A DNA stretch of 33,155 nt from Janthinobacterium lividum (GCA_945864765.1 CAMBDR010000001.1:1-33155); one strand, 5' to 3'; counted from the stretch's first letter, positions 1,885 to 22,488 are shown. The notes: a model not told the origin generated them from the sequence alone. Numbers and translations: made by a program.

Positions 1885-2820
1885 ATGCCAATACAGAGTC
1901 AACTAACACGGTTAGCGCGCGCGGTCTGCGCTGCCATCAGCACTATCAGCACCATCATTGCCATGAGTGTCATCAGTGCCCTCAGTTCATCTGCCCATGC
2001 CGATACGCTGGGCAAAATCCGCGACAGTAAAACCATCACCATTGCCCATCGTGAAGCGTCGCTGCCCTTTTCCTATTTTGACGAAAATAAAAAACCAATC
2101 GGCTATTCGATTGATTTATGCCTGAAAATTGTCGAAGCCATCAAGCATGAGTTGAAATTACCCAAATTGACGGTGCTGTATGTGCCAGTCTCTCCCTCGA
2201 CCCGCATTGCCACCATCATGCAGGGCAAAGCCGATCTGGAATGCGGTTCCACCACCAATAATGCGGAACGGCGCAAGCAAGTCGCGTTCACCATCCCGCA
2301 CTTTATGGCGGCCTCGCGCATGGTGGTGCGGACTGATTCCAACATCAAAAACTGGAACGATTTGCGCGGCAAGCGCGTGGTTACCACCAAGGGCACCACC
2401 TCCGTCAAATTGATCAGTGATCACAATAAAGGCCTGGCACTGGCCATCTCACTGGTGGAGGCCAATGACCATGCTGAATCGTTTGGCAAAGTCGAGAAAA
2501 ACGAAGCCGATGCCTTTCCAATGGACGATGTGTTGCTGTATGGTTTGCGCGCCAAGGCCAAAACGCCCGCCAATTTTGAGGTGGTGGGTTCGCCGATCTC
2601 AACTGAGCCGTATGCGATTATGATGGCCAAAGATGACCCCGCCTTCAAGGCGCTGGTGGACCTGGAAATGGCGCGCTTGATCAATGACGGGGAGTTGAGT
2701 AAAATTTATGACAAGTGGTTTAAGAAACCGATTCCACCGAATGGTATCAATATGAATATGCCAATGGGGCATTTATTGCGGGATACCTTGCTTTTCCCAA
2801 CCGACAAAGTTGGAGATTAG
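1885..2820 (+). CDS. gltI: Amino-acid (glutamate/aspartate-type) ABC transporter periplasmic substrate-binding protein
   Basis: 311 aa with a signal peptide ending SSAHA. It is a clear paralogue of the 5634-6611 ORF (shared GYSIDLCLK, ADLECGSTTNN.ERRKQVAF, EPYAIMM, YDKWF.KPIPP.GINMN). Family 3 SBP pattern. Confidence 0.85.
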   Translation: MPIQSQLTRLARAVCAAISTISTIIAMSVISALSSSAHADTLGKIRDSKTITIAHREASLPFSYFDENKKPIGYSIDLCLKIVEAIKHELKLPKLTVLYVPVSPSTRIATIMQGKADLECGSTTNNAERRKQVAFTIPHFMAASRMVVRTDSNIKNWNDLRGKRVVTTKGTTSVKLISDHNKGLALAISLVEANDHAESFGKVEKNEADAFPMDDVLLYGLRAKAKTPANFEVVGSPISTEPYAIMMAKDDPAFKALVDLEMARLINDGELSKIYDKWFKKPIPPNGINMNMPMGHLLRDTLLFPTDKVGD

Positions 2821-2842
2821 TTGGGGATTAGTTGGGGGTTAA
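2810..2842. repeat. Three tandem 11-mers, each ending in a stop codon, at the gltI 3' end
   Basis: ttggagattag / ttggggattag / ttgggggttaa. The first unit contains the real gltI stop (2818-2820). Confidence 0.9.
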
Positions 2843-2852
2843 ATTGTGCGTG

Positions 2853-3272
2853 TTATTTCAGCGCCACGACCATTTTGTAGCTGGCGTTGCCGTGGCTGCT
2901 GCCGATGACAATCAGATATTTTCCTGGCATGGGTAGCGCACCGACCCAATTGGTGGCATCGTCACCTGCGCTCGCCTGAGGCAAGCTTTTACCTTTGATC
3001 TCTTCCGAACCTGCCACACGCTTTGAGGTGTAGCCCGGTAAATAGATTTGAAATACCGCATTTTTTTCGCTGGAGGTTACTGCTACCGACAAGCCTTGCC
3101 CCGCCGTCGCATTGAACACATAGCTATGAATATAGCCATCAACCACCGTGCCTTGTACGGTGGTGTTATTGCCAGGCTTGGCAAAGGTGAGTACTTTTTC
3201 CAGCGCGTGTACCGTACCAAATGGGCAAGCCAAGGCCAGCAATAAGCATGTTTTTATGAGTAAGCGTGTCAT
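2853..3272 (-). CDS. Small secreted beta-rich protein, possibly a PliG-like (g-type lysozyme inhibitor) fold
   Basis: 139 aa with a signal peptide (MTRLLIKTCLLLALACPFGTVHA). The pattern G.V.DGY.HSYVFNATAGQGLSV...LPMPGKYLIVIG...ASYKMVVALK resembles my recollection of the YcgK/PliG family. Not verified by search. Confidence 0.45.
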   Translation of the reverse strand: MTRLLIKTCLLLALACPFGTVHALEKVLTFAKPGNNTTVQGTVVDGYIHSYVFNATAGQGLSVAVTSSEKNAVFQIYLPGYTSKRVAGSEEIKGKSLPQASAGDDATNWVGALPMPGKYLIVIGSSHGNASYKMVVALK

Positions 3273-3326
3273 TTTCAGCGGCCCTTTTATGAGATGTCGT
3301 GGCTATTTAGTATGGATATGTGCGTT

Positions 3327-3370
3327 GCTTAATGGAGGCTTAACGGAGGCTTAATGGCGGCTTAATGGAC
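3327..3370. repeat. Four tandem 11-mers duplicating the gltL stop region
   Basis: gcttaatggag / gcttaacggag / gcttaatggcg / gcttaatggac. The last unit holds the gltL stop (TTA at 3362-3364 on the plus strand) and its final codons. Confidence 0.9.
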
Positions 3371-4087
3371 GATCTTGGCTAAAAAGTCGCGTGCCCGATC
3401 TGAGCGCGGGGCACCGAAAAATTCATCTTTGGTGCAATCTTCAATCACCTTACCCTGATCCATAAACACAATCCGGTTCGCCACGCGCTTGGCAAAACCC
3501 ATTTCGTGGGTCACCACCATCATGGTCATGCCTTCTTGCGCCAGACCGACCATCACGTCCAGCACTTCATTAATCATTTCCGGGTCGAGCGCAGAAGTGG
3601 GTTCGTCAAACAACATGGCGATTGGGTCCATCGAGAGTGCGCGCGCAATCGCCACCCTTTGCTGCTGGCCACCCGAGAGTTGGCCGGGGAATTTATCTTT
3701 TTGCGCAATCAGGCCAACCCGATCCAAATATTTTAAACCGCGCACCCTCGCTTCTTCCTGGCTGCGCTTCAAGACCATCACCTGGCCGATGGTCAGGTTT
3801 TCGGTAATCGACAAATGCGGGAATAATTCAAAGTTTTGAAACACCATGCCAATTTTGGCGCGCAGGCTGGACAGATTGGTTTTGGGGTCGCCTACCGAAA
3901 TGCCATCGACGCTAATGTCGCCTTTTTGAAATGGCTCCAGGCCATTCACGGTTTTGATCAGGGTCGATTTGCCGGAGCCGGACGGGCCGCAAATAACCAT
4001 CACATCGCCTTTTTTGACATCGGTGGAGCAATCGGTCAGCACCTGAAACTGACCATACCACTTACTGACGTTTTTTAATGAAATCAT
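3362..4087 (-). CDS. gltL: Amino-acid ABC transporter ATP-binding protein
   Basis: Walker A GPSGSGKST, signature LSGGQQQRVAIARAL, Walker B MLFDEPTSALD. Start placed at MISLKNVSKWYG (ATG 4085-4087), not at the 75-aa Cys/Trp-rich extension in the track ORF, which overlaps gltK. Confidence 0.92.
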   Translation of the reverse strand: MISLKNVSKWYGQFQVLTDCSTDVKKGDVMVICGPSGSGKSTLIKTVNGLEPFQKGDISVDGISVGDPKTNLSSLRAKIGMVFQNFELFPHLSITENLTIGQVMVLKRSQEEARVRGLKYLDRVGLIAQKDKFPGQLSGGQQQRVAIARALSMDPIAMLFDEPTSALDPEMINEVLDVMVGLAQEGMTMMVVTHEMGFAKRVANRIVFMDQGKVIEDCTKDEFFGAPRSDRARDFLAKIVH

Positions 4088-4115
4088 GAAATTCTCCAAA
4101 TAGTGTGTGCGGTGT

Positions 4116-4808
4116 TTAGCGAATGATGGCGATTTTTTGTTGCAGGCGCTTGACGATGGTGGACAGTCCAAGGCACAGCACAAAATAGACAACTGCGACA
4201 AACAGATACATTTCCACCAGCCGCCCGTCGCGCTGCGCCACTTTTGAGGCGGCCCCAACGAAATCGGTAATCGACAACACATACACCAGCGATACGTCTT
4301 GAAACAGCACAATGGTTTGCGTCATCAGCACGGGCAGCATGTTGCGAAACGCCTGCGGCAAAATGATCTTGGCCATGGTTTGTCCGTAAGTCATGCCCAG
4401 CGCATGGCCAGCCCAGACCTGGCCGCGCGGTATCGATTGAATCCCGGCGCGCATGATTTCGCAGTAATAGGCGGCTTCAAATAAGATGAACGTGATCAGG
4501 CACGAGGCGAAAGCGCCGACCTTGATCGGTTCTTTGGCCCCAATCACCCATGCGCCGATATACGGCACCAAAAAATAAAACCAGAAAATAACCAACACCA
4601 GCGGCATTGAACGGATTAAATTCACATACGTGGTGGCAGGTAAAGAGAGCCAACGGGTACTCGATAGCCGCATCATCGCCAACAGCGTGCCCAGGAAAAT
4701 CCCGCCCACCATGGCTAACAGTGTGAGTTGGAGGGTAAATACCATCCCGGTTTGAAACAAATACACCCATGAACGCTCGATGACGTTGAAGTCGAAATTG
4801 GAAAACAT
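4116..4808 (-). CDS. gltK: Amino-acid ABC transporter permease
   Basis: 230-aa polytopic membrane protein of the HisM/GltK type with an EAA-like loop (EAAYYCEIMRAGIQSIPRGQVWAGHALGM). Sits between gltJ and gltL. Confidence 0.88.
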   Translation of the reverse strand: MFSNFDFNVIERSWVYLFQTGMVFTLQLTLLAMVGGIFLGTLLAMMRLSSTRWLSLPATTYVNLIRSMPLVLVIFWFYFLVPYIGAWVIGAKEPIKVGAFASCLITFILFEAAYYCEIMRAGIQSIPRGQVWAGHALGMTYGQTMAKIILPQAFRNMLPVLMTQTIVLFQDVSLVYVLSITDFVGAASKVAQRDGRLVEMYLFVAVVYFVLCLGLSTIVKRLQQKIAIIR

Positions 4809-6611: not shown

Positions 6612-6859
6612 GTGCTTCTCCTGGTGATGAATGATGATGGATGATTGTGAATGATCAAAAAGTGGCGAACTTAAAACAGCTAGTGTAGCAAAAGCCTTTG
6701 CCAGATACGAAAATTGATCTCAACAAGCGGCTGCAAGTGTCTGAATAATAGACGTTTATGCGCAATATTCCAACAAATTTAAATTCAGACGAAACAAAGG
6801 CAGGCAGTTGTCGAAGAAATATTGGATAATAACAGAATTGTTTTCGCAAAAGGTTTGTT

Positions 6860-8830
6860 ATGGGTTCGAGCGCAAATTCTCTCGTCGCTGCTGATGCCGC
6901 CGCGTTGTCTGCCACGCCTGCGGTGGTACGCCTGGGTATTCCTGGTCTTGCCAGCTTAACTGACAGCATGATGGCTGGCAGCCTGTATGCGCTGGTGGCG
7001 GAAGCGCCCCCCACCCGCTACCCCCTGATCGCCAGCAGTCTGGCCCATGCCTTGAAACACGATATTGCCTGCACCATCGTGGTGCCCGCCAATCCTGAGC
7101 AATTCATCGCGCGTATCGCCGGGTTTGCCCGGTTTGATTTGGAAACGGCGGTGGCGGAAGGGCGGATTCAATTCTTTGTGATGCAGGAAAATTTCAGCAA
7201 GACCATGTTTCGTTTTGGGCCGGAAACCTTTTGCCGCGAACTGGATCACTTTCAAATCCCTGACAACAGTTATTTTATTTTTGAACAAGCCGACGATTTG
7301 CTCAGCTTGCACGACGTATCGCTGGCTTTATCGCAGATCAGTGGTTTAAAGCAATGGTTTAGCCAGCATAATGTGACGGGTATGCTATCGTTTTCACGCA
7401 TTGGCAGTTCTGCCCAGTCTTTGGCCGCTTTGCAATGTCTGATGGATCAATTGGGCGGCATTACCCGTGTCGGTGGGCACCGCGACGGTTTGGAAATTAC
7501 CTTTGATTATTGGCATTCGCAAGAAGGCACGGTGGCGGCCAAGAGCTACCCGCTGCAAACGCTCGATTCGGGCATGTTGGTGGTGATGGCCAATGCGGCG
7601 CAAAACCATGGCACGGGCCGGGTTGAAGTGCCCGATGCCGAAGATGAAGGCGAGCCGCATTTCTTTTTTATGGATGCCGAACTCATCAGCATGGGCAAAC
7701 AAATGCCGGGCGTGTGGCAGCATGTTGATTCTTTGGTGGGGATGATGCATGTGACGCGCGAGCATCATTCGGCGACCGTCATCCTCACGTTCCGGCGCGA
7801 TACCGATTTACGCCAATTGGCGCAGGCGGTGCATACACTGCGCCATGGTTTGGGGCGGCGCGCGCGCATTGTGGTGCAAGAAAAAGGGGCGTCGCTGCGT
7901 TATCAAAACGAAGCCTTGTTATTGCGCCTGGGCTTGAATCTGGTGATTCACGTTGATGTCCACGCCAGCCGCTTACCTTTATTGCTGGCTTCGCTCAAGG
8001 GGCAAATTTTTGATCGGGATATCGATATCAATTTCGATATGGCCTTGGCCAGCGTCACGCCGTCCGGCTTGCGCGGCTATGTGTTGCCGCAACGCTTTGT
8101 GGCGGAGGCGCAAACTTTGCTGGAACGGGCGGAAACGTTGGATATCCCTTGCGCGCTGGTGCTGGGTATGCCGGGGCGGGATGTCACGGCGCAAGCCATT
8201 TTGGGTAAAATTTTGATGTCGCGCTCGGGCGATATGGTGAGCTTTGATCAGCAAAGCTGCTATATGTTTTTAAATGGCTGCCCGGAAACCAGTTTGCTGA
8301 TGACATTGGAGCGGGTATTGGGGCAAGACGTGGGCGCGGCGTTTGTGGAATCGCGCTTTGTTTTAAAGCGCCATGAAATTTTGGCCGAGCTGGCAGCGCT
8401 CACGCGCGCGGCGGAGCGCTACACCTTGCCAGATTATTCCGATGTGCCGATGCGGCCCGCACCGGTGCGGCCAGCGCCAGCGCAGGCAGTTGCGCCTGTA
8501 TCCATATCCGCACCTGGACCCGTTCATGCCCCCGCCCCCGCGCCAGCATTTGCGCGCGAGCTTGCGCCTGAGCCTGTACGTGTGCCTGCCTTCGTGCATA
8601 AGCCTGCGCCCGAGCCAGCACCTGCGCCTGTACCTGCGTTTGTGCAGCACAAACCTGCGCCCGTGATTGAGCTTGAGGAATCAAGCCCCGAACCTGCGGC
8701 AGCAGCCGTTGCTGCCAAGCCACCTGCTGGCGAAAGCGGCCAGTTCCATTATGGCGGCGAGTTAGGCAAAGTGGTTGCATTTGGCAAAAAAGAAGCCCCG
8801 CGTGCAACGCGGGCAGTGAAGAAAGCATAA
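6860..8830 (+). CDS. BcsE-like c-di-GMP receptor candidate (degenerate RecA-like, REC-like and degenerate GGDEF/GIL domains) with a Pro/Ala-rich C-terminal tail
   Basis: 656 aa. The N-terminus is KaiC/RecA-like but lacks a Walker A (LGIPGLASLTDSMMAGSLYALVAE). A REC-like segment follows (ATVILTFRRD...RARIVVQEKGASLRYQNEALLLRLGLNLVI). An I-site-like RSGD (nt 8222-8233) is followed by FDQQSCYMFL where GGDEF would sit. The three-part layout matches published BcsE architecture. Residues about 530-625 are PAPxPAP low complexity. Confidence 0.6.
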   Translation: MGSSANSLVAADAAALSATPAVVRLGIPGLASLTDSMMAGSLYALVAEAPPTRYPLIASSLAHALKHDIACTIVVPANPEQFIARIAGFARFDLETAVAEGRIQFFVMQENFSKTMFRFGPETFCRELDHFQIPDNSYFIFEQADDLLSLHDVSLALSQISGLKQWFSQHNVTGMLSFSRIGSSAQSLAALQCLMDQLGGITRVGGHRDGLEITFDYWHSQEGTVAAKSYPLQTLDSGMLVVMANAAQNHGTGRVEVPDAEDEGEPHFFFMDAELISMGKQMPGVWQHVDSLVGMMHVTREHHSATVILTFRRDTDLRQLAQAVHTLRHGLGRRARIVVQEKGASLRYQNEALLLRLGLNLVIHVDVHASRLPLLLASLKGQIFDRDIDINFDMALASVTPSGLRGYVLPQRFVAEAQTLLERAETLDIPCALVLGMPGRDVTAQAILGKILMSRSGDMVSFDQQSCYMFLNGCPETSLLMTLERVLGQDVGAAFVESRFVLKRHEILAELAALTRAAERYTLPDYSDVPMRPAPVRPAPAQAVAPVSISAPGPVHAPAPAPAFARELAPEPVRVPAFVHKPAPEPAPAPVPAFVQHKPAPVIELEESSPEPAAAAVAAKPPAGESGQFHYGGELGKVVAFGKKEAPRATRAVKKA

Positions 8831-8833
8831 AGG

Positions 8834-10591
8834 ATGCGTCGCTCAATTTCAACCCTCATCTTGTGGCTATTGCCGCTACTGTATTTTGGCCAGTACGGCA
8901 CCTGCCAGGCACAAGTGGAATCGGCCAAGCCAGCCGCTACTGCTGCCGCCACAACGACTTCTACTGACGACGCCAGCGCCGCCAACCCTGAGCCGCCCCC
9001 CTTGTCGCCCGTTGAAAAATGGTATCGTGGCGGACAATTTCAACAAGCGGCGGAACAAGGTTTGCAAGACTTGTTGCAAGAGCCATGGAATCACGAATTA
9101 CGCTTCATCGTGGCCGACAGTTTGCAGCGCAACGGGCAGATCGAACAAGCCATCGCCCAGTTTCAGGCACTCGATGGCACGCCGCTGGCGCATAGTGCCA
9201 ATGTGCGCCTGAATGCCTTGCGCGTCGGGCGCAATGAAATCCCGGACATTACCCCGCCCAATCCTAAATTGGCCAAATTGGCCAGCGCGCTACCCATATC
9301 CATACCAACTACCCAGCAAAACCTGGAAACCACCGCACCCCGGCCCGATAAGTTGGAGAAACCAGTCTCCACCCTGCGGGCGCGGGTATTGTTCCCGAAA
9401 AAATCCCCCGCCTTGCAAAAAATTGACGATTTGGCCAATAAAGGGGATTACGATGGCGTCGCACGCCAAGGCTTGCTCTTGCTGGCGCAAGATAAAAACA
9501 ATGCCGAGTTACGCTTGTTGGTGGCCAATAGTTTGGCCTGGACCGGCTTTTTGGATCAGGCAGCGGCGCAATATCAATTATTACTCGATACCTCGCAAGC
9601 GCAAGACGCGCAAGTGGGTTTGGCCAATGTCTACCGTTGGCGCGGTCAGGATGAACAAGCTTTGCCACTATATAAAGCGGTGTTGGCGCGCAGCCCTAAA
9701 AATGAGGCCGCGCTGGAAGGGCTGCGCCTGGCCGAGCGTGAACTGGCACCGCGCAGCCTGATCACGGCCGGTGCCGCCGTCGATTCGTCCGACGCCAAAC
9801 GGCGCGCTCTCGCCATCAACCACCGCTGGCGCGACAGGAGTGGCCGCCATGTGTTTGAAGTGGAAATGGGGGCCAACAACGATCAATTATTGGCGCTACA
9901 CCAAAATGAGCGCGATGTAACGCTACGCTACCAGGCTTTGGGCCTGCCGCTACAACCGAAGTTGGAAATAGCGGAACAGTATCAACCAAATCGTGTATTA
10001 ACGGGCAGCTTACGCCTGCATTGGTCGGGCGCGCAAAATTATATTGAGTTGGGGCGGCTGGATTGGGGTAAGCTGGCATCGAATGCCAAAGCCTTAAAAG
10101 GCGCGCTCACCGCCGACCACGTGGGGGCCGCCTTCGCAACTCGTGGCCGTTGGGGGGAATTGAGTGGTAAAATCGACAATTACAGCATTTCCGATGGGAA
10201 TGATATTATCAGCAGTGGCTTGCGCTTTGTGCCAGCATGGCGTCCTTTGGGCAACCATGTCAAATTATTTACCGGCATCGAAACGCGGGATGCACGCAAG
10301 GGCGCGGTAGCGGGTAGTTATTGGGCACCGGTGGATGGTTTTGGTTCCGGCTATGTCGGCTTGCAAACCGATTGGGGCGGGGCCGACTGGAGTTTATACG
10401 GTTCCGGCCAGGTCGGTGCGCGTTTATATGGCGAAGCGGGTAATAGTTGGAGTCTGTCGGCAGGTGGTAAGTGGTGGTTGGGCTCGGATTTTGCAGTCGG
10501 CTTAAATATGTTTGGCTTGGGTAGTCGGCGCGATAATGCGGGTTATCGGGCCAAAGCCGTGAATGTTAACCTGGAAAAATTGTGGAACTGA
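8834..10591 (+). CDS. Outer-membrane polysaccharide export porin with periplasmic TPR domain (PgaA/BcsC-like)
   Basis: 585 aa with a signal peptide (MRRSISTLILWLLPLLYFGQYGTCQA). TPR-like hairpins include LRFIVADSLQRNGQIEQAIAQFQAL, LRLLVANSLAWTGFLDQAAAQYQLLL and ALPLYKAVLARSPKNEAALEGL. The C-terminal 270 aa or so has a Gly/aromatic alternating beta-strand pattern ending ...VNVNLEKLWN. Confidence 0.6.
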   Translation: MRRSISTLILWLLPLLYFGQYGTCQAQVESAKPAATAAATTTSTDDASAANPEPPPLSPVEKWYRGGQFQQAAEQGLQDLLQEPWNHELRFIVADSLQRNGQIEQAIAQFQALDGTPLAHSANVRLNALRVGRNEIPDITPPNPKLAKLASALPISIPTTQQNLETTAPRPDKLEKPVSTLRARVLFPKKSPALQKIDDLANKGDYDGVARQGLLLLAQDKNNAELRLLVANSLAWTGFLDQAAAQYQLLLDTSQAQDAQVGLANVYRWRGQDEQALPLYKAVLARSPKNEAALEGLRLAERELAPRSLITAGAAVDSSDAKRRALAINHRWRDRSGRHVFEVEMGANNDQLLALHQNERDVTLRYQALGLPLQPKLEIAEQYQPNRVLTGSLRLHWSGAQNYIELGRLDWGKLASNAKALKGALTADHVGAAFATRGRWGELSGKIDNYSISDGNDIISSGLRFVPAWRPLGNHVKLFTGIETRDARKGAVAGSYWAPVDGFGSGYVGLQTDWGGADWSLYGSGQVGARLYGEAGNSWSLSAGGKWWLGSDFAVGLNMFGLGSRRDNAGYRAKAVNVNLEKLWN

Positions 10592-11949
10592 AAAAATCCT
10601 GGCGTTGGTTGGTGGCTGGCTCGGTGGTGGTGGGGCTGGTGCTGTTGATCGGCTTTAGCTACGATAAAATCCTCAATTTGGGTGAAGATTCGTTCAGCAT
10701 CCTGTTTGAAAACTTCGTGCTCTCGGCCATTTCCATCTATCTGATGTTTTTCCTGGCCTTGCTCATCATCCGCTATGCGGTGATGATTTTATATTCCTTT
10801 ATGGAGCACCTCGAATATTTGCTCAAGCGTCGCCGTGAAGACGCCAAAAGCGACACCAACTACCGCGAAGAAGGCAGCTTGCCGATGATTTCGCTGGTGG
10901 TGCCGGCTTATAACGAAGGCCCGGTGATACAACCTGCCGTGCGCTCCCTGCTGAAACTGGATTACCCGAACTATGAAATCATCGTGGTCGATGACGGTTC
11001 TTCCGACGATACCTATGAAAAAGCGCTGGCGGTATCGCGCGAGCAAAGCATTATCCCGGTGCGGGTGGTGACCAAGCGCAATGGCGGTAAATCTGATGCG
11101 CTCAACACCGGCATGACGCAAGCGCGTGGCGAATTCATTTTAAATATGGATGGCGATTCCAAACTCTCCAGCAATACCCTGCGCGCCTGCATCCGCCATT
11201 TTGAAGACCCCAGCGTGGGCGCGGTGGCCGGCAATGTTAAAGTTTTGAATCGTGAAAATTTATGGACCAAAGTGCAGGCACTGGAATATGTCGAAGGCCT
11301 GGCCATGGCGCGCAAGGCGCAAAGTTTTATGCGCGCCGTCAATATCATCCCCGGCCCCTTGGGCATGTTTCGCAAATCGGTATTGCAGCAGGCGGGTGGT
11401 TATGATCACGACACCTTTGCCGAAGATTGCGATTTAACACTGAAATTGCTGATGCGTGGCTGGCATATTGCCTACGAACCCACCGCCATTGCCTGGGTCG
11501 AAACCCCGAGCGGCCTGCTGGATTTACTCAAACAGCGCTACCGCTGGACCCGTGGCATTTTGCAAGCCACCAAAAAACATAGTTCGGCCCTGTGGCAACC
11601 GCGCAAAGCGGGCTTAAACTTCTTTATTTTATGGTATATGCTGTTTGAAGGCATTATGTGGCCTTTTTCCACCGTGCTGGGTAATATCTTTTTCGCCTAT
11701 ATCGGTTTGCAATATGGTGTCGCGATCTTTTTGTTTTATTGGTTGCTGCACTTAACCATGCTGGATATTATTTCCGCTGCCTATTGCGTCATCATCGAAG
11801 AAGAAGACCCTGGTTTGATTTTTTACTCGGTGGTATTTCGCTTGTTTTACATTACCATTATTGACGTTGCCAAGGTTTTTGCCACGCTGGAAGAATGGCG
11901 TGGCACCGCCATGACCTGGGGCAAATTGCAGCGCGAAGGAAAGCTTTAA
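10582..11949 (+). CDS. Processive family-2 glycosyltransferase, PgaC/IcaA/NodC-like polysaccharide synthase
   Basis: 455 aa with flanking TM helices. GT-A motifs: VVPAYNE, VVDDGSSDDT, NMDGDS, FAEDCDLT, QRYRWTRG (QxxRW). No PilZ domain. The GTG at 10582 overlaps the upstream stop; the exact start is uncertain. Confidence 0.85.
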   Translation: MELKKSWRWLVAGSVVVGLVLLIGFSYDKILNLGEDSFSILFENFVLSAISIYLMFFLALLIIRYAVMILYSFMEHLEYLLKRRREDAKSDTNYREEGSLPMISLVVPAYNEGPVIQPAVRSLLKLDYPNYEIIVVDDGSSDDTYEKALAVSREQSIIPVRVVTKRNGGKSDALNTGMTQARGEFILNMDGDSKLSSNTLRACIRHFEDPSVGAVAGNVKVLNRENLWTKVQALEYVEGLAMARKAQSFMRAVNIIPGPLGMFRKSVLQQAGGYDHDTFAEDCDLTLKLLMRGWHIAYEPTAIAWVETPSGLLDLLKQRYRWTRGILQATKKHSSALWQPRKAGLNFFILWYMLFEGIMWPFSTVLGNIFFAYIGLQYGVAIFLFYWLLHLTMLDIISAAYCVIIEEEDPGLIFYSVVFRLFYITIIDVAKVFATLEEWRGTAMTWGKLQREGKL

Positions 11950-11961
11950 TATGGAACTGCT

Positions 11962-12180
11962 ATGGATTTAATTTCTCTACTGGCCACGGTCATTTTGATT
12001 ACCACCATCGGCACCCTGGTGGTGGCGGTGGCCGCTTACATTGCCTTTAAATTGCGTGATAAACGTCGCCCCAAAAAGCGCGACCCCACCATGCATTCTG
12101 ACGGCCCCTATCAACCGATCTTTTTAGAGCGCTACGTACCCGGCAAAACGCTGGAAGACGCAACGCCCAAAGAATCATGA
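11962..12180 (+). CDS. Small single-pass membrane protein (possible PgaD/IcaD-type synthase partner)
   Basis: 72 aa with one hydrophobic helix (LISLLATVILITTIGTLVVAVAAYIAF) followed by the basic stretch KLRDKRRPKKRD. Its stop overlaps the next gene's start (ATGA at 12177-12180). Function is inferred from position only. Confidence 0.5.
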   Translation: MDLISLLATVILITTIGTLVVAVAAYIAFKLRDKRRPKKRDPTMHSDGPYQPIFLERYVPGKTLEDATPKES

Positions 12181-14030
12181 GTGCACTCGCCATGGCGAAG
12201 TTGGACGTAGACCAGTTTGAAAACCGCCCGGCCTATCGCCGTAATGGCATGTATTTGCCTGCGCTGTTTATTATGGGTATTGCCACCGCGATTTTGGGGT
12301 TTTTAATGGCCATGCAAAGCTTGGGCTGGAAAATGCCGATCGTCGGGGCCGAGCAAAAAAAGACTGATAGTGTGCAAAATGGCGTGGTGTTATATATCTC
12401 GCCCAATAGCCGCGCCTATTTCACCCAAATTGGTGGCAATTACGACAACTTGCTCATCCCCTGGCGCAATTACTTTAAAGAGCGCAAGGAAAAGATTAAA
12501 GAAATCACCGATATCGGCGAACTGATTAAACTCACCGAAGGCGTGTTGATTTTGCCTTCGGCCTTATCGCTCAATGAGGAAGAGCGCGGCGAAATTACCC
12601 GCTTCCAAAAAAACGGTGGCGCGGTGATGGCCACTTGGGCTACGGGTAGCAGAAATGGTAAAGGCGATTGGCAAGGCTGGGAATTATTGGCTGATTTGGG
12701 CGCGCAAGTGCTGGGTGAAATGGAAGTCGGTTCAACCGCCCAGCAATTGGTGTTGAATGGCGAATCGCCAATATCGCAACAAAACGCGGCAGGCAAGCGG
12801 ATTTGGTTGGGCAAACCAGCCGAGCGGTTTTTGCGCATCAAGGGGGAAAACCGGGGCGCGCAAATTATGGAATGGAGCCGCGCACCCACTAAAGAGCGTG
12901 CGGCTGAAGCGGCGATCACGTTTTCAGAAAAAAACGGAGGCCGCGCCGTGGTGTTTGCCTTTGCCGAATCGGCCTGGGAAGCGCAAGCCTTTCCCATTTA
13001 CGCGATGGTGGATGACGCGCTCACCTGGTTGCAGCGCAAACCGGCCATTGTTAAAGCCAGTTGGCCCAATGGGCGGCGCAGTGCGGAAATGATTGAAATG
13101 GATACCGAACAAGGTTTTCCGAATGCGCTGCGCTTTGGTTCGATGATGCGCGCCTTAAACTATCGCGGCACTTTTTATGTGCTCACCTCGGTCGGCAAGC
13201 AATACCCGGATGTGTTGCAATCCTTGGCGCGCGATTTTGAAATTGGCTACCATGGCGATGTGCATGATAATTTTAAAGGGCAAGCCATCAGCCTGCAGCA
13301 ACAGCGCATGAACACCATGCAAGCCGAAATGAAAGACGTGCTGCACGACACGCAAACGGTGCTTGGCTTTCGCGCGCCGTTTGAAAGTTATGATGCCAAT
13401 ACCGAAAAATTGCTGGTGAAAATGGGTGTGGGTCACCACGTGGTAGACCCTGGCCGCAGCGATGCGCGGGTGCCGGAGTTGGTGAAAATCGACAATGTAA
13501 AAGATGCGCTGGTGATTTTGCCGCGTACCCAGCGCGATGATATTAACCTCGACAAAGAAGGCTTGGCAGGCGACAAGCTGGGGCAAGCTTTGATTGATGA
13601 CTTTGATTTGTCCTATGAAATGGGAGCCTTGGGCTTGCTCAGTATTCATAGCCAAAATTATGGCACCGATGCGCCGCTTACGGCTGCCATGCCTTTGTTG
13701 CTTACCCATCTTAAAAAATATCGTGCCCAAGTCTGGTTGGCCTCCGGCACCGAAGTGGCTAATTGGTGGCGCGAGCGTGAGCGTTTGAAACTGTCTTCGC
13801 GCAATTTGGGGCGGCGGTTGGAATTTAACCTCTCGGTGACCGGTAAAACCCCGTTGCAAGGCGGAAGTTTAACGGTGATGCTGCCTAAAAAAGGTATCAT
13901 GCCCAATGTTCAGGCGTTGAAGGTGGGCTTGCCCAAGCCGCAAGTGCTGAAAATTGATGAATTTCGCGCCGCCATTGTGTTTGATTCCTTAAGCCCAGGT
14001 GATTATGCCTACCAGGCGACGTTTGAATAA
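12177..14030 (+). CDS. Membrane-anchored polysaccharide deacetylase (CE4/NodB-type) with an extra N-terminal periplasmic domain
   Basis: 617 aa with a TM anchor (MYLPALFIMGIATAILGFLMAM). CE4-like motifs: EIGYHGDVHDNF (HxxxH) and LGFRAPFESYD (RxPF). The canonical TFDDG motif appears degenerate (IEMDTEQG). Confidence 0.7.
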   Translation: MSALAMAKLDVDQFENRPAYRRNGMYLPALFIMGIATAILGFLMAMQSLGWKMPIVGAEQKKTDSVQNGVVLYISPNSRAYFTQIGGNYDNLLIPWRNYFKERKEKIKEITDIGELIKLTEGVLILPSALSLNEEERGEITRFQKNGGAVMATWATGSRNGKGDWQGWELLADLGAQVLGEMEVGSTAQQLVLNGESPISQQNAAGKRIWLGKPAERFLRIKGENRGAQIMEWSRAPTKERAAEAAITFSEKNGGRAVVFAFAESAWEAQAFPIYAMVDDALTWLQRKPAIVKASWPNGRRSAEMIEMDTEQGFPNALRFGSMMRALNYRGTFYVLTSVGKQYPDVLQSLARDFEIGYHGDVHDNFKGQAISLQQQRMNTMQAEMKDVLHDTQTVLGFRAPFESYDANTEKLLVKMGVGHHVVDPGRSDARVPELVKIDNVKDALVILPRTQRDDINLDKEGLAGDKLGQALIDDFDLSYEMGALGLLSIHSQNYGTDAPLTAAMPLLLTHLKKYRAQVWLASGTEVANWWRERERLKLSSRNLGRRLEFNLSVTGKTPLQGGSLTVMLPKKGIMPNVQALKVGLPKPQVLKIDEFRAAIVFDSLSPGDYAYQATFE

Positions 14031-14034: not shown

Positions 14035-15297
14035 ATGGTGACTATGTTGATCAAGCCTTACGAGGCCCTGCTGGCCTTGCGTTTTTTGTTGGGAAAAAAA
14101 AGTACCAATTACATTTCTTTTACCTCGTGGGCGTCGATTATCGCGATGTTGTTGTCGGTGATGACGCTCATTATCGTGCTCTCGGTCATGAACGGGTTTC
14201 GGGAGATTATCGAAACCACCTATGTCAGCGTCGATGCCGAAGTGCAAGTGCTGGGCGATGAGCATCAAGCCACGGATTGGAAAAAAATCGAACAAAGCAT
14301 TGCTGCCACCAGCGGCGTGCTGCGCCATGCGCCGTTTTTGGAAAAGCAGGGCTTGGTGTTGAATGGCAAGCGTGCCTTGCCGATGACGATACGCGGCATC
14401 GACCCGCTACAAGAAAAAGCCATCGTCAAAATCCGCCAGTCGATACCGGAAGATGTGTTTGCCACCCTGCAAGCCGATAGCCGCAATGTGGTGGTGGGTA
14501 GCGAGGTAGCGGCGGAATATGATTTGAATCTCGGTAAGAAACTCTCGCTGGTGATTCCCAAATCCGGTGCGGGCAATACCCTCAGCTCGCCCGACGTGGC
14601 CAGTTTTACCGTGAGCGGTATTTTCCAAACGCGCGACAATAAATCCAATGCCAGCTTCATTTATTTGCATCTGCAAGACTTGCAGCAGTTTGTCGGGGCG
14701 GCGGCGGGGGCGCAAAGCGGGTTTCAGGTGGCGGTGGTGGATATGGAAGGGGCACCAGCCATTGCCAAGCGTTTGCGCGCAACCCTGCCCACGAGTTTGC
14801 GCGTGGTGGATTGGCAGCAAAAAAACGCGGCGCAATACAAGGCGGTGAAGTTTGAAAAATTATTGATGACCCTGATGCTGTGCGTGATTATTCTCATTTC
14901 CGGCTTGAACATCATCATCACCACCATTATGACGGTCAACGCCAAGCGCGGTGAAATTGCGATTTTAATGACCATGGGCGCGCCAGAAAAAAGTATTGCG
15001 CGGGTGTTTATTTTCAACGGCTTTATTTTGGGCATGGGTGGGATTGTGTTTGGCGTGGGCGCAGGGGTGTGGATTGCGCCCAATATTGGCAACATTATCG
15101 CCACGCTGGAAAAAGCCTTGGCGTTTCGGGTGTTTGACCCGACGGTGTTGGATATTGTGCATATTCCTTCGCGGCTGGAAGGGGGCGATGTGTTGTTGGT
15201 GTCGATAGTGGCCTTTTCCGTGGCAATGATTGCGACCCTGCTGCCCGCTTTGCATGCGGCGCGCATCAATCCGGTGGAGGCGTTTCGCTATGAATAA
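14035..15297 (+). CDS. lolC: Lipoprotein-releasing system transmembrane subunit (LolC/LolE family; a single copy suggests LolF type)
   Basis: 420 aa with a MacB-type FtsX fold. The N-terminus (ALLALRFLLGKK...SVMNGFRE) resembles the LolC/E N-terminus, with a large periplasmic loop and C-terminal TM helices. Followed by lolD with an overlapping start. The true start may be the ATG at 14044. Confidence 0.85.
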   Translation: MVTMLIKPYEALLALRFLLGKKSTNYISFTSWASIIAMLLSVMTLIIVLSVMNGFREIIETTYVSVDAEVQVLGDEHQATDWKKIEQSIAATSGVLRHAPFLEKQGLVLNGKRALPMTIRGIDPLQEKAIVKIRQSIPEDVFATLQADSRNVVVGSEVAAEYDLNLGKKLSLVIPKSGAGNTLSSPDVASFTVSGIFQTRDNKSNASFIYLHLQDLQQFVGAAAGAQSGFQVAVVDMEGAPAIAKRLRATLPTSLRVVDWQQKNAAQYKAVKFEKLLMTLMLCVIILISGLNIIITTIMTVNAKRGEIAILMTMGAPEKSIARVFIFNGFILGMGGIVFGVGAGVWIAPNIGNIIATLEKALAFRVFDPTVLDIVHIPSRLEGGDVLLVSIVAFSVAMIATLLPALHAARINPVEAFRYE

Positions 15298-15994
15298 GGA
15301 GCAGGCGGAGGCAACTGAGGCAACTGAGGCGATTTTACAATGCCGCGATGTGAGTAAATCGTTTGAGATGGCGGGTACGCGGATTCATGTCTTAAACGGG
15401 GTGGATTTAAGCGTGGCGGCGCATTCCAGCGTGGCGATTATGGGGGCTTCCGGCGGCGGTAAGAGTACCTTGCTGCATATTCTGGGTGGGCTGGATCAGG
15501 CCAGCCAGGGTGAGGTGTGGATTGCCGGGCAAAGTTTGCAAGCCATGAAGCGGGCCGACATTGCCGCCATGCGCAACCGGCATTTGGGCTTTGTTTACCA
15601 GTTTCACCATTTATTGGGGGATTTAAGCGCGCTGGAAAATGTCATCATGCCCTTATTAATTGGTGGCATGGACAAAATGTCGGCCAGCAAGCAGGGGCTG
15701 GCATGGTTGGAAAAAGTCGGCCTAACGGCGCACGCCAGGAAAAAACCGGGTTATTTGTCCGGCGGCGAGCGCCAACGCGTGGCCATTGCGCGCGCGCTGG
15801 TGGCCAGCCCGAAATGCGTGCTGGCCGATGAACCGACCGCCAATCTGGATCGCGCCAATGCGGCGGTGGTGTTGGAACTGCTGCTCAATTTGTGTCGCGA
15901 TAGTGGCTGTAGTCTGGTGTTGGTGACGCATGATGCGCAAATTGCCGGGGCTTTGCAGCGTACCGTCAGGTTGGTGGATGGCAAGCTGCAGTAG
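15290..15994 (+). CDS. lolD: Lipoprotein-releasing system ATP-binding protein
   Basis: Walker A GASGGGKSTL, signature LSGGERQRVAIARAL, Walker B VLADEPTANLD. Start set at the ATG at 15290, which overlaps the lolC stop (ATGAATAA), rather than the track's 15230. Confidence 0.9.
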   Translation: MNKEQAEATEATEAILQCRDVSKSFEMAGTRIHVLNGVDLSVAAHSSVAIMGASGGGKSTLLHILGGLDQASQGEVWIAGQSLQAMKRADIAAMRNRHLGFVYQFHHLLGDLSALENVIMPLLIGGMDKMSASKQGLAWLEKVGLTAHARKKPGYLSGGERQRVAIARALVASPKCVLADEPTANLDRANAAVVLELLLNLCRDSGCSLVLVTHDAQIAGALQRTVRLVDGKLQ

Positions 15995-16825: not shown

Positions 16826-16854
16826 CGCCCGTACATTCATGACAGGGGGCGTTG

Positions 16855-17442
16855 ATGATTAACGATGCGATGAAATTTTTGGCAGGCCAACTGGATCAGT
16901 TTTGCAAGCATAGTTTAGGCGGGGAAGAAACGATCGCAAAAGCGGTGCATCTGGCCGAACCCGGTGACGCAGCAGGCACGCCAAAGTTGGCCTTGACCTT
17001 GGTGAATATTGAAAAAGATACCTTGCCCTACCGCCAGCGCGATTTGAGCGGTGTGCGCAGCGGGCCGGACGCCGGGCTGGCGGTGTATAGCGCGCCGCTG
17101 TACCTGAACCTGTATGTGATGCTGGCAGCCGATCCGCAAGGCGATTATGACGGGGCCTTGAAAAAAATATCGCTGGCGATCAATTTTTTTCAACTGCATC
17201 CGGTGTTTGATCACCAGACCAATCCCGACCTTGATCCAGGGATTGAAAAATTGATCCTCGATATAGCCAACCTCGGGCTGCATGATTTGCATAATGTCTG
17301 GGGTTTGTTGGGCGGCAAGTATTTGCCGTCGGTGTTCTACAAGGTGCGCATGGTGGTGGTGGATGCAAATGCGATGCTCAGGTCCGTGCCGCAGATCACC
17401 CAAATTGATAGCCAGGCCAGCGTCGTCAAGCCGGGCGTGTGA
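16855..17442 (+). CDS. eCIS tail terminator/cap protein, DUF4255 (Pvc16/Afp16 N-terminal domain)
   Basis: About 195 aa. Family-like features: MINDAMKFLAGQL, LALTLVNIEKD, LYLNLYVMLAA, NVWGLLGGKYLPSVFYKVRMVVV. AGGGGG lies 5-6 nt before the ATG at 16855 (the track uses TTG at 16852). Confidence 0.8.
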   Translation: MINDAMKFLAGQLDQFCKHSLGGEETIAKAVHLAEPGDAAGTPKLALTLVNIEKDTLPYRQRDLSGVRSGPDAGLAVYSAPLYLNLYVMLAADPQGDYDGALKKISLAINFFQLHPVFDHQTNPDLDPGIEKLILDIANLGLHDLHNVWGLLGGKYLPSVFYKVRMVVVDANAMLRSVPQITQIDSQASVVKPGV

Positions 17443-17673
17443 ATGATGCTGATCATTACATCAGTAACGACCTGAACAGTGACGCACCGCGTGTGGCGTA
17501 ATTGGTCACAGTGATTGAAAAAAATAAAAGATGAGCCAGCACATTGCGATGTTTTAAGCGTAGACTTTCGTTGGTTCGGGTGGTTATTGGCGGGTTGTGC
17601 ATGACTTTTACTGCATGGCTGTGTTGACAGGTATGTGCGGTAATGACGGTCCAAAAGGTGACCAGGAGCTGCG

Positions 17674-18438
17674 ATGGCGGGTTATGTGCATTTGTTGACG
17701 ATCAGCGTCAAGCATGAATACTTTGAGGGTGTTGCCGGCCCGGCGTGGGAATTTGTGCCGACGCAGGCATGCGCCGCGCTGGCGCGGCAATATGCGCTGG
17801 TGGTGCGGCAAAATGCCGATGGGATGGAGGTTTGGCATGACGGGTCGGCGCTCCCGGGGCCGCTTGCGTTGGCTTACCGCCTGCGCTGCCGCGATCCCTT
17901 GTTTCAATCCTATACCGATTGGGCTGCCACGCCGACCATTGGATTAATCGGTGGCGAATCTGGCGAATCTGGTAGCTCCGCCACAATTTCAGCGGTTTAT
18001 GAGGTTAATGTTGCCAATGAGCCGCCACCCTTTAAGCGCTTGCCTGACCCTTACTGCGACATTGCTATCACATTAACGACGGCCGAATTAAACGCGCAAA
18101 CGAAGCCAAGGCAATATCAAATTACCTTTAAGGCCGCAATGGTCAAGTGGCGGTATATCGTATCAGGCACGGCCGACACGGTAGCCGCCGCCACAGGCGA
18201 CGCTGGCGAGGTCGTGGCATTTGACAAAGCTGACCCGGTACAGTCAATGCCCCAATACACCACCTTTACCTCTACGGCCGCTATTGCGCTGCGCTACCGC
18301 TCGCCGCAACGTTTCAAACTCACCAGTGGCGTTAACGATCTTATTCAGTGTTTGCCAAACGCCAGCATCAACATGATTTGCAACAAGGGCACCAAAGCCG
18401 ATCCGCAGTACGTTGCAGAAATTTACGTTCACCAATAA
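17674..18438 (+). CDS. Hypothetical protein located between the eCIS cap and sheath genes
   Basis: 254-aa ORF with AGGAG 6 nt upstream of the ATG. Its composition matches neighbouring genes and I recognise no motif. Contains an in-frame GESGESGS microsatellite. Confidence 0.6.
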   Translation: MAGYVHLLTISVKHEYFEGVAGPAWEFVPTQACAALARQYALVVRQNADGMEVWHDGSALPGPLALAYRLRCRDPLFQSYTDWAATPTIGLIGGESGESGSSATISAVYEVNVANEPPPFKRLPDPYCDIAITLTTAELNAQTKPRQYQITFKAAMVKWRYIVSGTADTVAAATGDAGEVVAFDKADPVQSMPQYTTFTSTAAIALRYRSPQRFKLTSGVNDLIQCLPNASINMICNKGTKADPQYVAEIYVHQ

Positions 18439-18455
18439 CTTTTAAAGGAACCGAC

Positions 18456-20606: not shown

Positions 20607-20675
20607 TCCGGCGACAGACAACAATCATGGGGGCGCGACCCCTGTCCTTTAATTTTTTAAGTAGCGAGGTTGATG

Positions 20676-21125: not shown

Positions 21126-21135
21126 CGGCGGCGGC

Positions 21136-21600: not shown

Positions 21601-21613
21601 ATAAGGATTTGTG

Positions 21614-21775: not shown

Positions 21776-21778
21776 GCC

Positions 21779-22468: not shown

Positions 22469-22488
22469 GCAGAAAGGATAACCAGCAC

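Follow-up and report, generated by a model that had tools for sequence, protein, structure and literature searches.

BcsE, which senses the biofilm signal c-di-GMP, has so far been described only as an accessory of the cellulose machine. In the locus analyzed here, a BcsE-like protein is paired with a PgaC-like synthase, which raises the question of what such a receptor would control in this setting and how the combination came about. A literature search yielded no published description of a BcsE-family receptor linked to a cassette of PgaC-like synthase, CE4 deacetylase, and porin, in line with the earlier note on this DNA, whose author knew of none.

Gene layout of the locus

The window, i.e., the whole stretch of DNA that was analyzed, covers 33 kb of an incomplete genome. 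All five co-directional open reading frames (ORFs) that the earlier note had placed within positions 6860–14030 were present with the coordinates given there (Table 1). The BcsE-like gene is followed after 3 nt by the gene of the outer-membrane exporter (OMP), which overlaps the GT2 synthase gene by 10 nt; 12 nt separate the latter from the small ORF. The stop–start coupling proposed for the small ORF and the CE4 gene exists as an ATGA overlap if the CE4 start lies at 12177, but it is uncertain because gene callers place the start of the CE4 homologs at Met6 (nt 12192, resulting in 612 amino acids here). Across the family, the median junctions are 33, −10, 1, and 14 nt in operon order, the last value referring to the small ORF and the CE4 gene. 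Profile and neighborhood searches detected none of BcsA, B, Z, C, Q, or G in the rest of the 33-kb window, as had been claimed for the locus, and BcsR was also absent there.

Table 1. Coordinates of the genes, motifs, and upstream region of the locus
Feature	Position (nt)	Strand	Remark
Upstream control region	6764–6831	+	alignment of five upstream regions
BcsE-family gene	6860–8830	+	656 aa
R347-Y-Q-N350 in REC*	7898–7909	+	position of E. coli second I-site R306ATD
Primary I-site R455-S-G-D458 on GGDEF*	8222–8233	+	aligns to E. coli R415TGD
DQQSC at GGDEF position	8246–8260	+	3' of RSGD
C-terminal peptide FGKKEAPRATR	8780–8812	+	after Pro/Ala linker
OMP gene (TPR-porin)	8834–10591	+	585 aa
GT2 synthase gene	10582–11949	+	455 aa
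GT2 motif DDGS	10987–11007	+	invariant in 50 family members
GT2 motif DGD	11146–11160	+	invariant in 50 family members
GT2 motif AED	11416–11433	+	invariant in 50 family members
GT2 motif QRYRW (QxxRW)	11533–11547	+	invariant in 50 family members
Small single-pass peptide gene	11962–12180	+	72 aa
Tail motif AFKLRDKRRP	12043–12072	+	Arg/Lys-rich, juxtamembrane; conserved
Tail motif PIFLERYVP	12115–12141	+	conserved
CE4 deacetylase gene	12177–14030	+	617 aa; alternative start 12192
CE4 motif D309-T-E311	13098–13112	+	invariant or nearly so, 48 homologs
CE4 motif H359xxxH363	13251–13265	+	invariant or nearly so, 48 homologs
CE4 motif R399-A-P	13371–13385	+	invariant or nearly so, 48 homologs
CE4 motif L-S-I-H491	13638–13652	+	invariant or nearly so, 48 homologs

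The encoded proteins

The BcsE/GIL identity proposed for the leader gene was supported by the profile search. Residues 22–531 of the protein matched positions 4–473 of the 513 positions of the Pfam profile CBP_BcsE (PF10995; 240.3 bits, E 5e-71, cutoff 25), and phmmer against the E. coli BcsE structures 6YBB, 6TJ0, and 9FNN gave an E-value of 6e-17 over residues 285–524. The identity to E. coli BcsE is about 22%, and the NCBIfam equivalog cutoffs for BcsE were not reached (TIGR03369, 189 bits with at least 244.65 needed; NF011619, 72.2 bits with at least 929 needed). By these scores, the protein belongs to a divergent BcsE subfamily and is not an equivalog. A degenerate RecA-like N-domain is followed by REC*, GGDEF*, a linker rich in proline and alanine (47% Pro+Ala in residues 530–640), and a conserved C-terminal peptide. 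The sequence contains neither a Walker A motif nor any GK[ST], in accordance with the earlier description of the N-domain.

The RSGD motif reported before was recovered at exactly nt 8222–8233 and aligns residue for residue with the E. coli I-site; all 52 BcsE-like family proteins keep its R, G, and D. The degenerate GGDEF position described as FDQQSC was likewise found. The second I-site RxxD on REC* is not conserved: the arginine is present in 49 of the 52 family members and asparagine replaces the aspartate in 49, the motif lying within the near-invariant block ASLRYQNEALLLRLG. The C-terminal motif FGKKEAPRATR is shared by 40 of 54 full-length homologs but not by E. coli BcsE; it is a candidate docking peptide. 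Judged from its sequence, the leader gene encodes a genuine BcsE-family (GIL) protein and a predicted c-di-GMP receptor. E. coli BcsE acts largely via BcsQ; the window lacks a BcsQ gene, which might lie elsewhere in the genome.

The GT2 protein matches several GT2 Pfam models and is an inner-membrane protein with transmembrane (TM) helices at both ends, as deduced from hydrophobic segments. Its description as a PgaC/IcaA-like QxxRW synthase without PilZ proved accurate: the motif is intact, no PilZ domain was detected by profile search, and PgaC_IcaA was the best NCBIfam family with 228.8 bits (NodC 109, CelA 70), a score below the equivalog cutoff (TIGR03937, 422.3 bits). The protein is nearer to E. 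coli PgaC (32% identity, E 6e-47) than to BcsA (24%, E 2e-11). Its nearest relatives outside its own family are GH18-CE4-GT2 and CE4-GT2 fusions (35–38% identity, about 260 bits), and the resemblance to these outgroups links this type of GT2 to the predicted de-N-acetylation of GlcNAc polymers.

The small peptide consists of one N-terminal TM helix (hydrophobic segment 1–31) and a cytosolic tail. It was found in 53 loci, with strong conservation, and matched no Pfam family. Its assignment to a PgaD/IcaD slot was not upheld, since PgaD has two TM helices, no sequence similarity to PgaD was found, and the topology is BcsF-like; homology to BcsF was not detected by hhalign (probability 0.5%). Because of its topology and a short motif, we propose that the peptide may serve as a BcsF-like tether or co-subunit, in analogy to the BcsF mechanism and the docking of BcsF on BcsE (PMC11470070).

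The exporter comprises a signal peptide, TPR blocks at residues 59–133 and 192–304, and a 16-stranded beta-barrel (307–583). The top Foldseek PDB matches of its AlphaFold model (mean pLDDT 84.6) were BcsC (9B8A), PelB (9H80_M), and PgaA (4Y25; TM 0.77 normalized to the target, rmsd 3.7 Å). The label "PgaA-like" fits the fold of TPR plus 16-stranded barrel, but sequence similarity to PgaA was not detected (16 bits with TIGR03939, cutoff 366), Pfam recognized only TPR models, and the structural matches to BcsC and PelB were equal to or better than that to PgaA. According to the model, the protein belongs to the BcsC/PelB/PgaA structural class of TPR plus 16-strand porins.

In the CE4 protein, a TM segment (27–48) precedes a GATase1/GH42M-like domain (about 70–290), the CE4 barrel (about 300–535), and a beta-sandwich (537–616). 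Polysacc_deac_1 (PF01522) matched with 38.6 bits (cutoff 23.1). The top Foldseek matches of the AlphaFold model (pLDDT 87.1) were PuuE-like CE4 proteins (3RXZ, 3CL6, 1Z7A, 3S6O), HpPgdA, and NDST1. Its former designation as "PgaB-like" is reduced to an analogy: BLASTP revealed no similarity to PgaB (E-value 0.99), the domain architecture differs, and PgaB was absent from the top 50 Foldseek matches. The protein is predicted to be a membrane-anchored periplasmic deacetylase with conserved catalytic residues.

Related loci and descent of the arrangement

The neighborhood survey of BcsE-like relatives, which the earlier note had suggested, revealed the full cassette directly 3' of the BcsE-like gene in 44 of the 48 related loci with enough downstream sequence. 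Because the gene order recurs in this way, the five-gene arrangement is far beyond chance; the coupling is kept in about 60 species, mostly Burkholderiales. In at least four loci (L033, L036, L041, and L046), the BcsE-like gene is followed by a CE4 paralog plus AlgF/AlgX instead of the cassette, so that the link between receptor and GT2 is not strict.

The description "instead of cellulose genes" holds for the window clade and a few others, but not for the 30 of 36 loci with wide flanks in which Bcs-like or Alg-like genes adjoin the cassette. The neighbors in these 36 loci include BcsQ (26), BcsB (9), GH18 (13), and AlgX/AlgF-type acetylation genes (27); the BcsB and BcsQ of related loci are true BcsB and BcsQ. 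In the two hybrid loci in which a BcsA-like gene was readable over its full length, this gene is degenerate and lacks TED and QxxRW, so that the PgaC-like GT2 is the only intact synthase found in them. In another locus (L045), BcsB/Z/C and BcsQ surround the cassette, and its 10-kb flanks contain no BcsA-like gene. Cassettes that stand alone were found at several chromosomal sites with unrelated surroundings (the window, L005–L008, L055, L059, L067, L075, and L076). In the tree, the stand-alone window clade is nested inside Bcs-linked clades, which places the stand-alone form as derived. A better reading of the locus is thus that of a hybrid Bcs/Pga-like machine that has been trimmed, not of a pga operon that has newly captured a sensor.

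Proposed function and comparison with known systems

We consider it probable that the five genes form a self-contained operon for synthase-dependent exopolysaccharide secretion, gated by c-di-GMP via the BcsE-like protein and representing the core that remained when a hybrid Bcs/Pga-like machine was trimmed. The GT2 would polymerize and translocate a homopolymer derived from UDP-GlcNAc, the CE4 protein would partly de-N-acetylate it in the periplasm, and the TPR-porin would lead it out of the cell. Binding of c-di-GMP to R455xGD458 on GGDEF*, with R347 on REC* probably assisting, would gate the output post-translationally. The 72-aa peptide would keep the BcsE-like protein at the synthase, its cytosolic strand (P-IFLxRYV-P) docking on the degenerate RecA-like N-domain as the tail of E. 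coli BcsF does. In most relatives, the hybrid machine additionally contains BcsB, BcsQ, GH18, and O-acetylation genes, with a catalytically dead BcsA where examined.

The predicted polymer is probably GlcNAc-based and deacetylated. It owes the label "PNAG-like" to the GT2 alone, which is nearest to PgaC/IcaA; for the OMP, the CE4 protein, and the small protein, no homology to Pga proteins was detected. A hint at a linkage other than beta-1,6 comes from the association with GH18. It is quite improbable that the CE4 protein instead O-deacetylates a glucan or some other polymer that is not a de-N-acetylated hexosamine. CE4 enzymes can act as O-deacetylases, too, and the acetylxylan esterases of this family were among the structural matches; moreover, AlgI/AlgJ/AlgF/AlgX-type O-acetylation genes and CE4 paralogs beside AlgF/AlgX were found in 27 of the 36 related loci. 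However, the best families of the GT2, PgaC/IcaA and then NodC, are GlcNAc transferases, its outgroup relatives carry CE4 and GH18 as fusion partners, and no acetyltransferase genes were found in the 33-kb window. The hydrolase of the related clusters is GH18, which requires an N-acetyl group on its substrate.

The cassette might also not be autonomous, the window representing a split hybrid Bcs machine in which the BcsE-like protein and the cassette need BcsQ, BcsB, and a pseudo-BcsA encoded elsewhere. The Bcs- or Alg-like neighbors of most related cassettes, above all BcsQ, the limited view of 33 kb of an incomplete genome, and the binding of E. coli BcsE to BcsQ through GGDEF* (PMC7439463) are consistent with this. 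We regard it as unlikely, as stand-alone cassettes, free of Bcs-like genes over 10 kb, are found in three or more clades and in varied contexts, including contigs of 128, 327, and 411 kb (viewed over ±10 kb only), and as the cassette holds every function that a synthase-dependent system needs. That c-di-GMP is sensed at the interface of GT2 and small peptide, as proposed for PgaC–PgaD, with the BcsE-like protein being only a scaffold or enhancer or acting at the transcription level, would agree with the order of a PgaC-like GT2 and a small membrane partner that has a conserved juxtamembrane motif rich in Arg and Lys. PgaCD detects c-di-GMP through membrane-proximal arginines (reviewed in PMC8892547), and the N-domain of E. 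coli BcsE binds antitermination factors. The invariance of RxGD in the 52 BcsE-like proteins argues for retained ligand binding, though, and the single TM helix of the peptide and its dissimilarity to PgaD also make such sensing very unlikely.

The locus combines a membrane-embedded processive GT2 (D, DxD, ED, QxxRW), a periplasmic modifier, a TPR-porin, and a predicted c-di-GMP receptor in one operon, as is general for synthase-dependent exopolysaccharide systems. With the type II Bcs system of E. coli and Salmonella (BcsE-BcsF-BcsRQ-BcsAB), it shares the BcsE-family leader with degenerate NTPase-like N-domain, REC*, and GGDEF*, and a small single-pass peptide of BcsF-like size and topology in the same operon. 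It differs in the lack of BcsA, B, Q, R, G, Z, and C from the window, in the PgaC-like synthase without PilZ, and, compared to E. coli BcsE, in RYQN instead of RATD at the second I-site and in the additional Pro/Ala linker and C-terminal peptide. In functional layout, the locus matches the PgaABCD/IcaADBC systems, with a PgaC/IcaA-related GT2, a small membrane partner, a CE4-fold deacetylase, and a TPR-porin with a modeled 16-strand barrel. In contrast to PgaABCD, the gene order is different, a dedicated cytosolic c-di-GMP receptor is predicted for the window operon and Pga has none, and homology to Pga proteins is limited to the GT2, whose score lies below the PgaC equivalog cutoff. PgaB is a lipoprotein of CE4 plus GH153, whereas the CE4 protein combines a TM anchor, a GATase1-like domain, a PuuE-like CE4 domain, and a beta-sandwich without GH153.

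The trio of GT2 and CE4 (plus GH18) resembles the GH18-CE4-GT2 and CE4-GT2 fusion synthases, such as Streptomyces MatB; in the Burkholderiales superclusters these are separate genes, whereas the fusions are single polypeptides without BcsE-like protein, porin, or small peptide. PelD is a membrane GAF-GGDEF* protein with an architecture unrelated to BcsE, polymer synthesis in Pel relies on the cytosolic GT4 PelF together with PelG, and no Pel homologs are present at the locus. The pairing of receptor, deacetylase, and TPR-porin is Pel-like, and PelB is among the top structural matches of the OMP. In Pel, a c-di-GMP receptor with an I-site on a degenerate GGDEF domain goes together with a CE4-type deacetylase, a TPR-porin, and a hexosamine polymer that is partly de-N-acetylated (PMC8892547, PMC8461298).

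Upstream of the BcsE-like gene, no riboswitch was detected by Rfam, and a weak sigma-70-like match was located at 6720–6749. The alignment of five upstream regions showed two motifs that are invariant in the window clade, TATTCCAACAAA (about 6766–6777) and GGATAAT (about 6824–6830), which are candidate operator and −10 elements.

Organization and surroundings of the operon

All five forward-strand genes that the earlier note had proposed for this operon were found as open reading frames. As claimed there, the junctions are short or overlapping: genes 1 and 2 are separated by 3 nt, genes 2 and 3 overlap by 10 nt, and genes 3 and 4 are separated by 12 nt. The family-wide median junctions are 33, −10, 1, and 14 nt. 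The proposed stop–start coupling of genes 4 and 5 is readable as an ATGA overlap, but it is not certain because gene callers place the start of gene 5 homologs at Met6 (nt 12192). The claimed absence of cellulose genes also held for BcsA, B, Z, C, Q, and G throughout the 33-kb window.

Features of the window with their coordinates
Feature	Position	Strand	Remark
KptA/Tpt1 RNA 2'-phosphotransferase homolog	1067-1609	-	Pfam PTS_2-RNA, E 2e-49
Two solute-binding proteins, Glu/Asp-type ABC transporter	upstream of operon	opposite	
Motifs TATTCCAACAAA and GGATAAT	6764-6831		upstream of operon
Gene 1, BcsE-like	6860-8830	+	656 aa
Gene 2, OMP	8834-10591	+	585 aa
Gene 3, GT2	10582-11949	+	455 aa
Gene 4, small peptide	11962-12180	+	72 aa
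Gene 5, CE4 protein	12177-14030	+	617 aa
LolC/E-like permease, then LolD	14035-15994	+	first starts 4 nt past gene 5 stop
Pvc16_N	16852-17442	+	Pvc-like system
Sheath	18348-20606	+	Pvc-like system
Two gp19-type tubes	20670-21125, 21136-21600	+	Pvc-like system
CIS_tube	21779-22468	+	Pvc-like system
VgrG-like spike	22165-24279	+	Pvc-like system
Large ORF	25168-28863		1231 aa, no Pfam hit, Pvc region
Large ORF	29906-31987		693 aa, no Pfam hit, Pvc region

Across five loci of the clade that includes the window, both upstream motifs are invariant amid diverged flanking sequence; they may serve in regulator binding and as promoter elements. No Rfam family reached its gathering threshold anywhere in the window, which therefore holds no c-di-GMP riboswitch at this threshold. 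Downstream, the sole hairpin after the CE4 gene (14061–14079) was rejected as an intrinsic terminator because it falls within the LolC-like ORF. Transcription of the EPS operon possibly reads on into the LolC/E-like and LolD genes; this adjacency is absent in the relatives L005, L007, L075, and L076. The rest of the window also contains a methyltransferase gene and, at 16852–32000 of the forward strand, a Pvc-like extracellular contractile injection system.

The five encoded proteins

The assignment of gene 1 to the BcsE family was borne out by Pfam (CBP_BcsE, 240 bits, E 5e-71, residues 22–531). The NCBIfam equivalog cutoffs were missed (TIGR03369, 189 vs. 244.65; NF011619, 72 vs. 929), and the protein shares about 22% overall identity with E. 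coli BcsE. Residues 285–524 match the E. coli BcsE structures 6YBB, 6TJ0, and 9FNN (phmmer against PDB, E 6e-17), which cover the degenerate REC and GGDEF domains (REC*-GGDEF*). By these profile scores, the protein is a genuine but divergent BcsE that lies in the Pfam family and outside the NCBIfam equivalog. In a 53-sequence alignment, R455 corresponds to E. coli R415 and R347 to R306. The primary I-site R455-x-G-D458 (nt 8222–8233) is present and a Walker A motif is missing, both as the earlier note had stated; the I-site is invariant in 52 of 52 family members. The position of the second I-site, R306ATD in E. coli BcsE (PMC11470070), reads R347-Y-Q-N350 and lies within the near-invariant block ASLRYQNEALLLRLG. 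The C-terminal part (window 8448–8827) consists of a linker of about 110 aa with 47% Pro+Ala (residues 530–640), followed by the conserved basic peptide FGKKEAPRATR, a motif detected in 40 of 54 full-length homologs. E. coli BcsE has neither element. A shorter BcsE-like protein (513 aa) without the GGDEF* domain occurs in the related loci L065 (9941–11482), L066, and L069; where E. coli BcsE has its second I-site, this protein retains an RxxD (RSVD), and it still heads the same cassette (genes 2–5).

The GT2 protein contains DDGS, DGD, AED, and QRYRW, none of which varies among 50 family members, and it has hydrophobic segments at both ends; a PilZ domain is absent, as previously noted. Its similarity to PgaC/IcaA is real but loose: PgaC_IcaA is the best NCBIfam model (228.8 bits; NodC 109, CelA 70), but the cutoff of 422.3 is not reached. 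It is closer to E. coli PgaC (32%, E 6e-47) than to BcsA (24%, E 2e-11), in line with the original proposal. An exhaustive search of 1.84 billion representatives revealed relatives outside the family (35–38% identity) that include GH18-CE4-GT2 triple fusions of 1,100–1,340 aa. In P0370, P0373, P0387, and P0401, for instance, a single polypeptide combines the three activities that are encoded by separate genes in the Burkholderiales clusters.

For the outer membrane protein (OMP), Pfam matches are limited to TPR. In a confident AlphaFold model (pLDDT 84.6), the protein folds into two TPR blocks plus a 16-stranded barrel; the best PDB matches are BcsC, PelB, and PgaA (4Y25, TM 0.77 normalised to the target, rmsd 3.7 Å). 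The porin fold would fit the description as PgaA-like; at the sequence level, no similarity to PgaA or BcsC was found. Likewise, gene 5 had been called PgaB-like in function. Across 48 homologs, the CE4 motifs D309-T-E311, H359xxxH363, R399-A-P, and L-S-x-H491 vary little or not at all. BLASTP against PgaB was empty, and PgaB is not among the top 50 structural hits. The protein (model pLDDT 87.1) comprises a TM anchor, a GATase1/GH42M-like domain, a CE4 barrel, and a C-terminal beta-sandwich, and it structurally resembles the PuuE/HpPgdA-like CE4 subgroup and the NDST1 N-deacetylase. Superclusters (e.g., L002, 7843–9708, and L001, 7000–8769, both on the reverse strand) harbor up to three TM-anchored CE4 paralogs, each about 600 aa long. 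Besides the cassette type, there is one with 40% identity and another with 31% identity, the latter always located beside AlgF/AlgX.

The 72-aa ORF was found in 53 loci and is, judging from this conservation, a real gene. The peptide has a near-invariant N-terminal TM helix, a juxtamembrane AFKLRDKRKP, and a cytosolic P-IFL(K/E)RYV-P. Its placement in the PgaD slot was not upheld, since PgaD (137 aa) has two TM helices and BLASTP gave no match; BcsF (63 aa) has one, as does the peptide. Homology to BcsF or PgaD could not be shown, with no Pfam match for any of 26 members even at E values up to 10, an hhalign probability of 0.5%, and no BLASTP hit; therefore, only a topological analogy is retained.

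Related loci and hybrid clusters

A search of one genome per species yielded 65 loci, nearly all from Burkholderiales (Rhodoferax, Undibacterium, Noviherbaspirillum, Polaromonas, Curvibacter, Hylemonella, Acidovorax, Hydrogenophaga, and Azonexus) plus Silanimonas; the nearest relative is a Burkholderiaceae MAG (93% identity). The operon is one member of a conserved, uncharacterised family. Mapping of the cassette proteins, together with Bcs, Pga, and Alg references, onto these loci showed that the complete cassette directly follows the BcsE-like gene in 44 of the 48 whose downstream sequence extends over at least 7 kb. The arrangement "instead of cellulose genes" proved true for the window but not for most relatives: 30 of 36 cassette loci with wide flanks have Bcs- or Alg-like genes within 10 kb (BcsQ in 26, AlgX/AlgF in 27, GH18 in 13, and BcsB in 9), and six, including the window, are stand-alone. 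L005–L008 (60–93% identity to the window) are all stand-alone and occupy the same site beside the ABC transporter; two further stand-alone copies, on contigs of 411 and 327 kb, have very different surroundings. In a neighbor-joining tree rooted with E. coli BcsE and calculated without bootstrap values, at least three independent stand-alone groups are seen and the window clade is nested inside BcsQ/Alg-linked clades, for which reason the stand-alone form is most simply explained as a derived, trimmed state. By comparison, a canonical Burkholderiales BcsE (Caballeronia) is encoded in a classical bcsBZC-E-Q-A-G cluster. Plasmid carriage was rejected, as PLSDB contains only canonical BcsE (22–29% identity) in classical bcs clusters, e.g., of Caballeronia. 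In the stand-alone relative L076, a LuxR-type response regulator and a histidine kinase (1254–4248) are encoded directly upstream of the BcsE-like gene and may provide transcriptional control in that lineage.

The larger clusters contain genuine BcsB (Pfam BcsB, 683 bits) and BcsQ (CBP_BcsQ, 121 bits). A complete BcsA-like gene was detected in only two loci, L068 (3788–5965) and L039 (147–2348), and is degenerate in both: one copy has TKH and the other AEP in place of TED, neither contains QxxRW, the PilZ motif DxSxxG is lost while RxxxR is kept, and little or no Pfam GT2 signal remains. Because these proteins lack the motifs yet adjoin genuine BcsB and BcsQ, they are candidate pseudo-synthase scaffolds. 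In L045, two BcsQ copies, GH18, and BcsB/Z/C surround the cassette, and no BcsA-like gene lies within the flanks. Among the synthases seen in these loci, only the PgaC-like GT2 of the cassette has its catalytic motifs intact, which argues that the BcsE-like protein works with this enzyme rather than with a cellulose synthase. At least four loci (L033, L036, L041, and L046) speak against a strict pairing of the BcsE-like protein with this GT2: their BcsE-like gene is followed by a CE4 paralog and AlgF/AlgX in place of the cassette.

Proposed mechanism and relation to known systems

The GT2 protein would synthesize and translocate a GlcNAc-type homopolymer, as suggested by its nearest families PgaC/IcaA and NodC, the fusion of relatives to CE4/GH18, and its dedicated CE4 partner. 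In the periplasm, the TM-anchored CE4 enzyme would remove part of the N-acetyl groups, and the polymer would be exported through the TPR-porin. The BcsE-like protein is predicted to bind c-di-GMP at RxGD and to be tethered to the synthase by the 72-aa peptide. E. coli BcsF, which has one TM helix, offers a precedent for such a tether: the part of its tail that follows P43 attaches to the BcsE N-domain through beta-sheet complementation (PMC11470070). By analogy, the conserved P-IFLxRYV-P strand may plausibly correspond to this tail. The linkage may be beta-1,6 or beta-1,4, with the recurrent GH18 partnership as a hint at the latter.

The operon follows the logic of synthase-dependent EPS systems, with Bcs type II as the source side of its receptor and Pga/Ica as that of its synthase. 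Conceptually, it resembles Pel in the degenerate-GGDEF I-site receptor, the CE4 deacetylase, the TPR-porin, and the predicted, partially deacetylated hexosamine polymer. A PNAG/pga-like operon, as originally suggested, agrees with the loose GT2 similarity and the porin fold, but no other defining test identified the locus as pga; the observation of the earlier note is confirmed and its interpretation supported in part. A further-reaching reading, to which we assign a rather low probability, is a Bcs/Pga chimera forming an undescribed class of synthase-dependent EPS systems. A PgaC-like engine would stand in the place of BcsA; the full version would still carry BcsA, as nothing but a dead scaffold, and the minimal version of the window would have lost it. 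The c-di-GMP signal would be relayed by a BcsE-family receptor on a BcsF-like peptide instead of PilZ/PgaD, and the product would be a partially deacetylated, chitin/chitosan-like (beta-1,4) GlcNAc polymer, as the recurring GH18 partnership suggests.

Full-text searches yielded neither a BcsE-family-led PgaC-like/CE4 operon, consistent with the novelty claimed before, nor hybrid Bcs/PgaC-like clusters, although passing mentions of either in older literature are possible. BcsE was deliberately omitted from the queries of a systematic EPS operon survey (PMC7112194). A paper on Rubrivivax gelatinosus EmbRS, considered as a lead to related clusters, deals with unrelated PEP-CTERM/Wzy-type clusters.

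The main value of the family would lie in BcsE as a portable adaptor and in the exposure of a Bcs/Pga chimera with a dead BcsA. BcsE has been regarded as an accessory that marks cellulose secretion of the enterobacterial type. A conserved subfamily leading a PgaC-like operon would mark the BcsE module (degenerate NTPase, REC*, and GGDEF* with I-site) as a c-di-GMP adaptor that could serve various synthases, even those without PilZ and PgaD. The hybrid clusters, with dead BcsA, real BcsB/BcsQ, and an intact PgaC-like synthase, represent a natural experiment on scaffold versus catalyst subunits, and the five-gene minimal version is compact enough for heterologous reconstitution. Members of the family occur widely among Burkholderiales from freshwater and soil (Rhodoferax, Undibacterium, Polaromonas, and Noviherbaspirillum), and their polymer may therefore be an unrecognised matrix component of these habitats.
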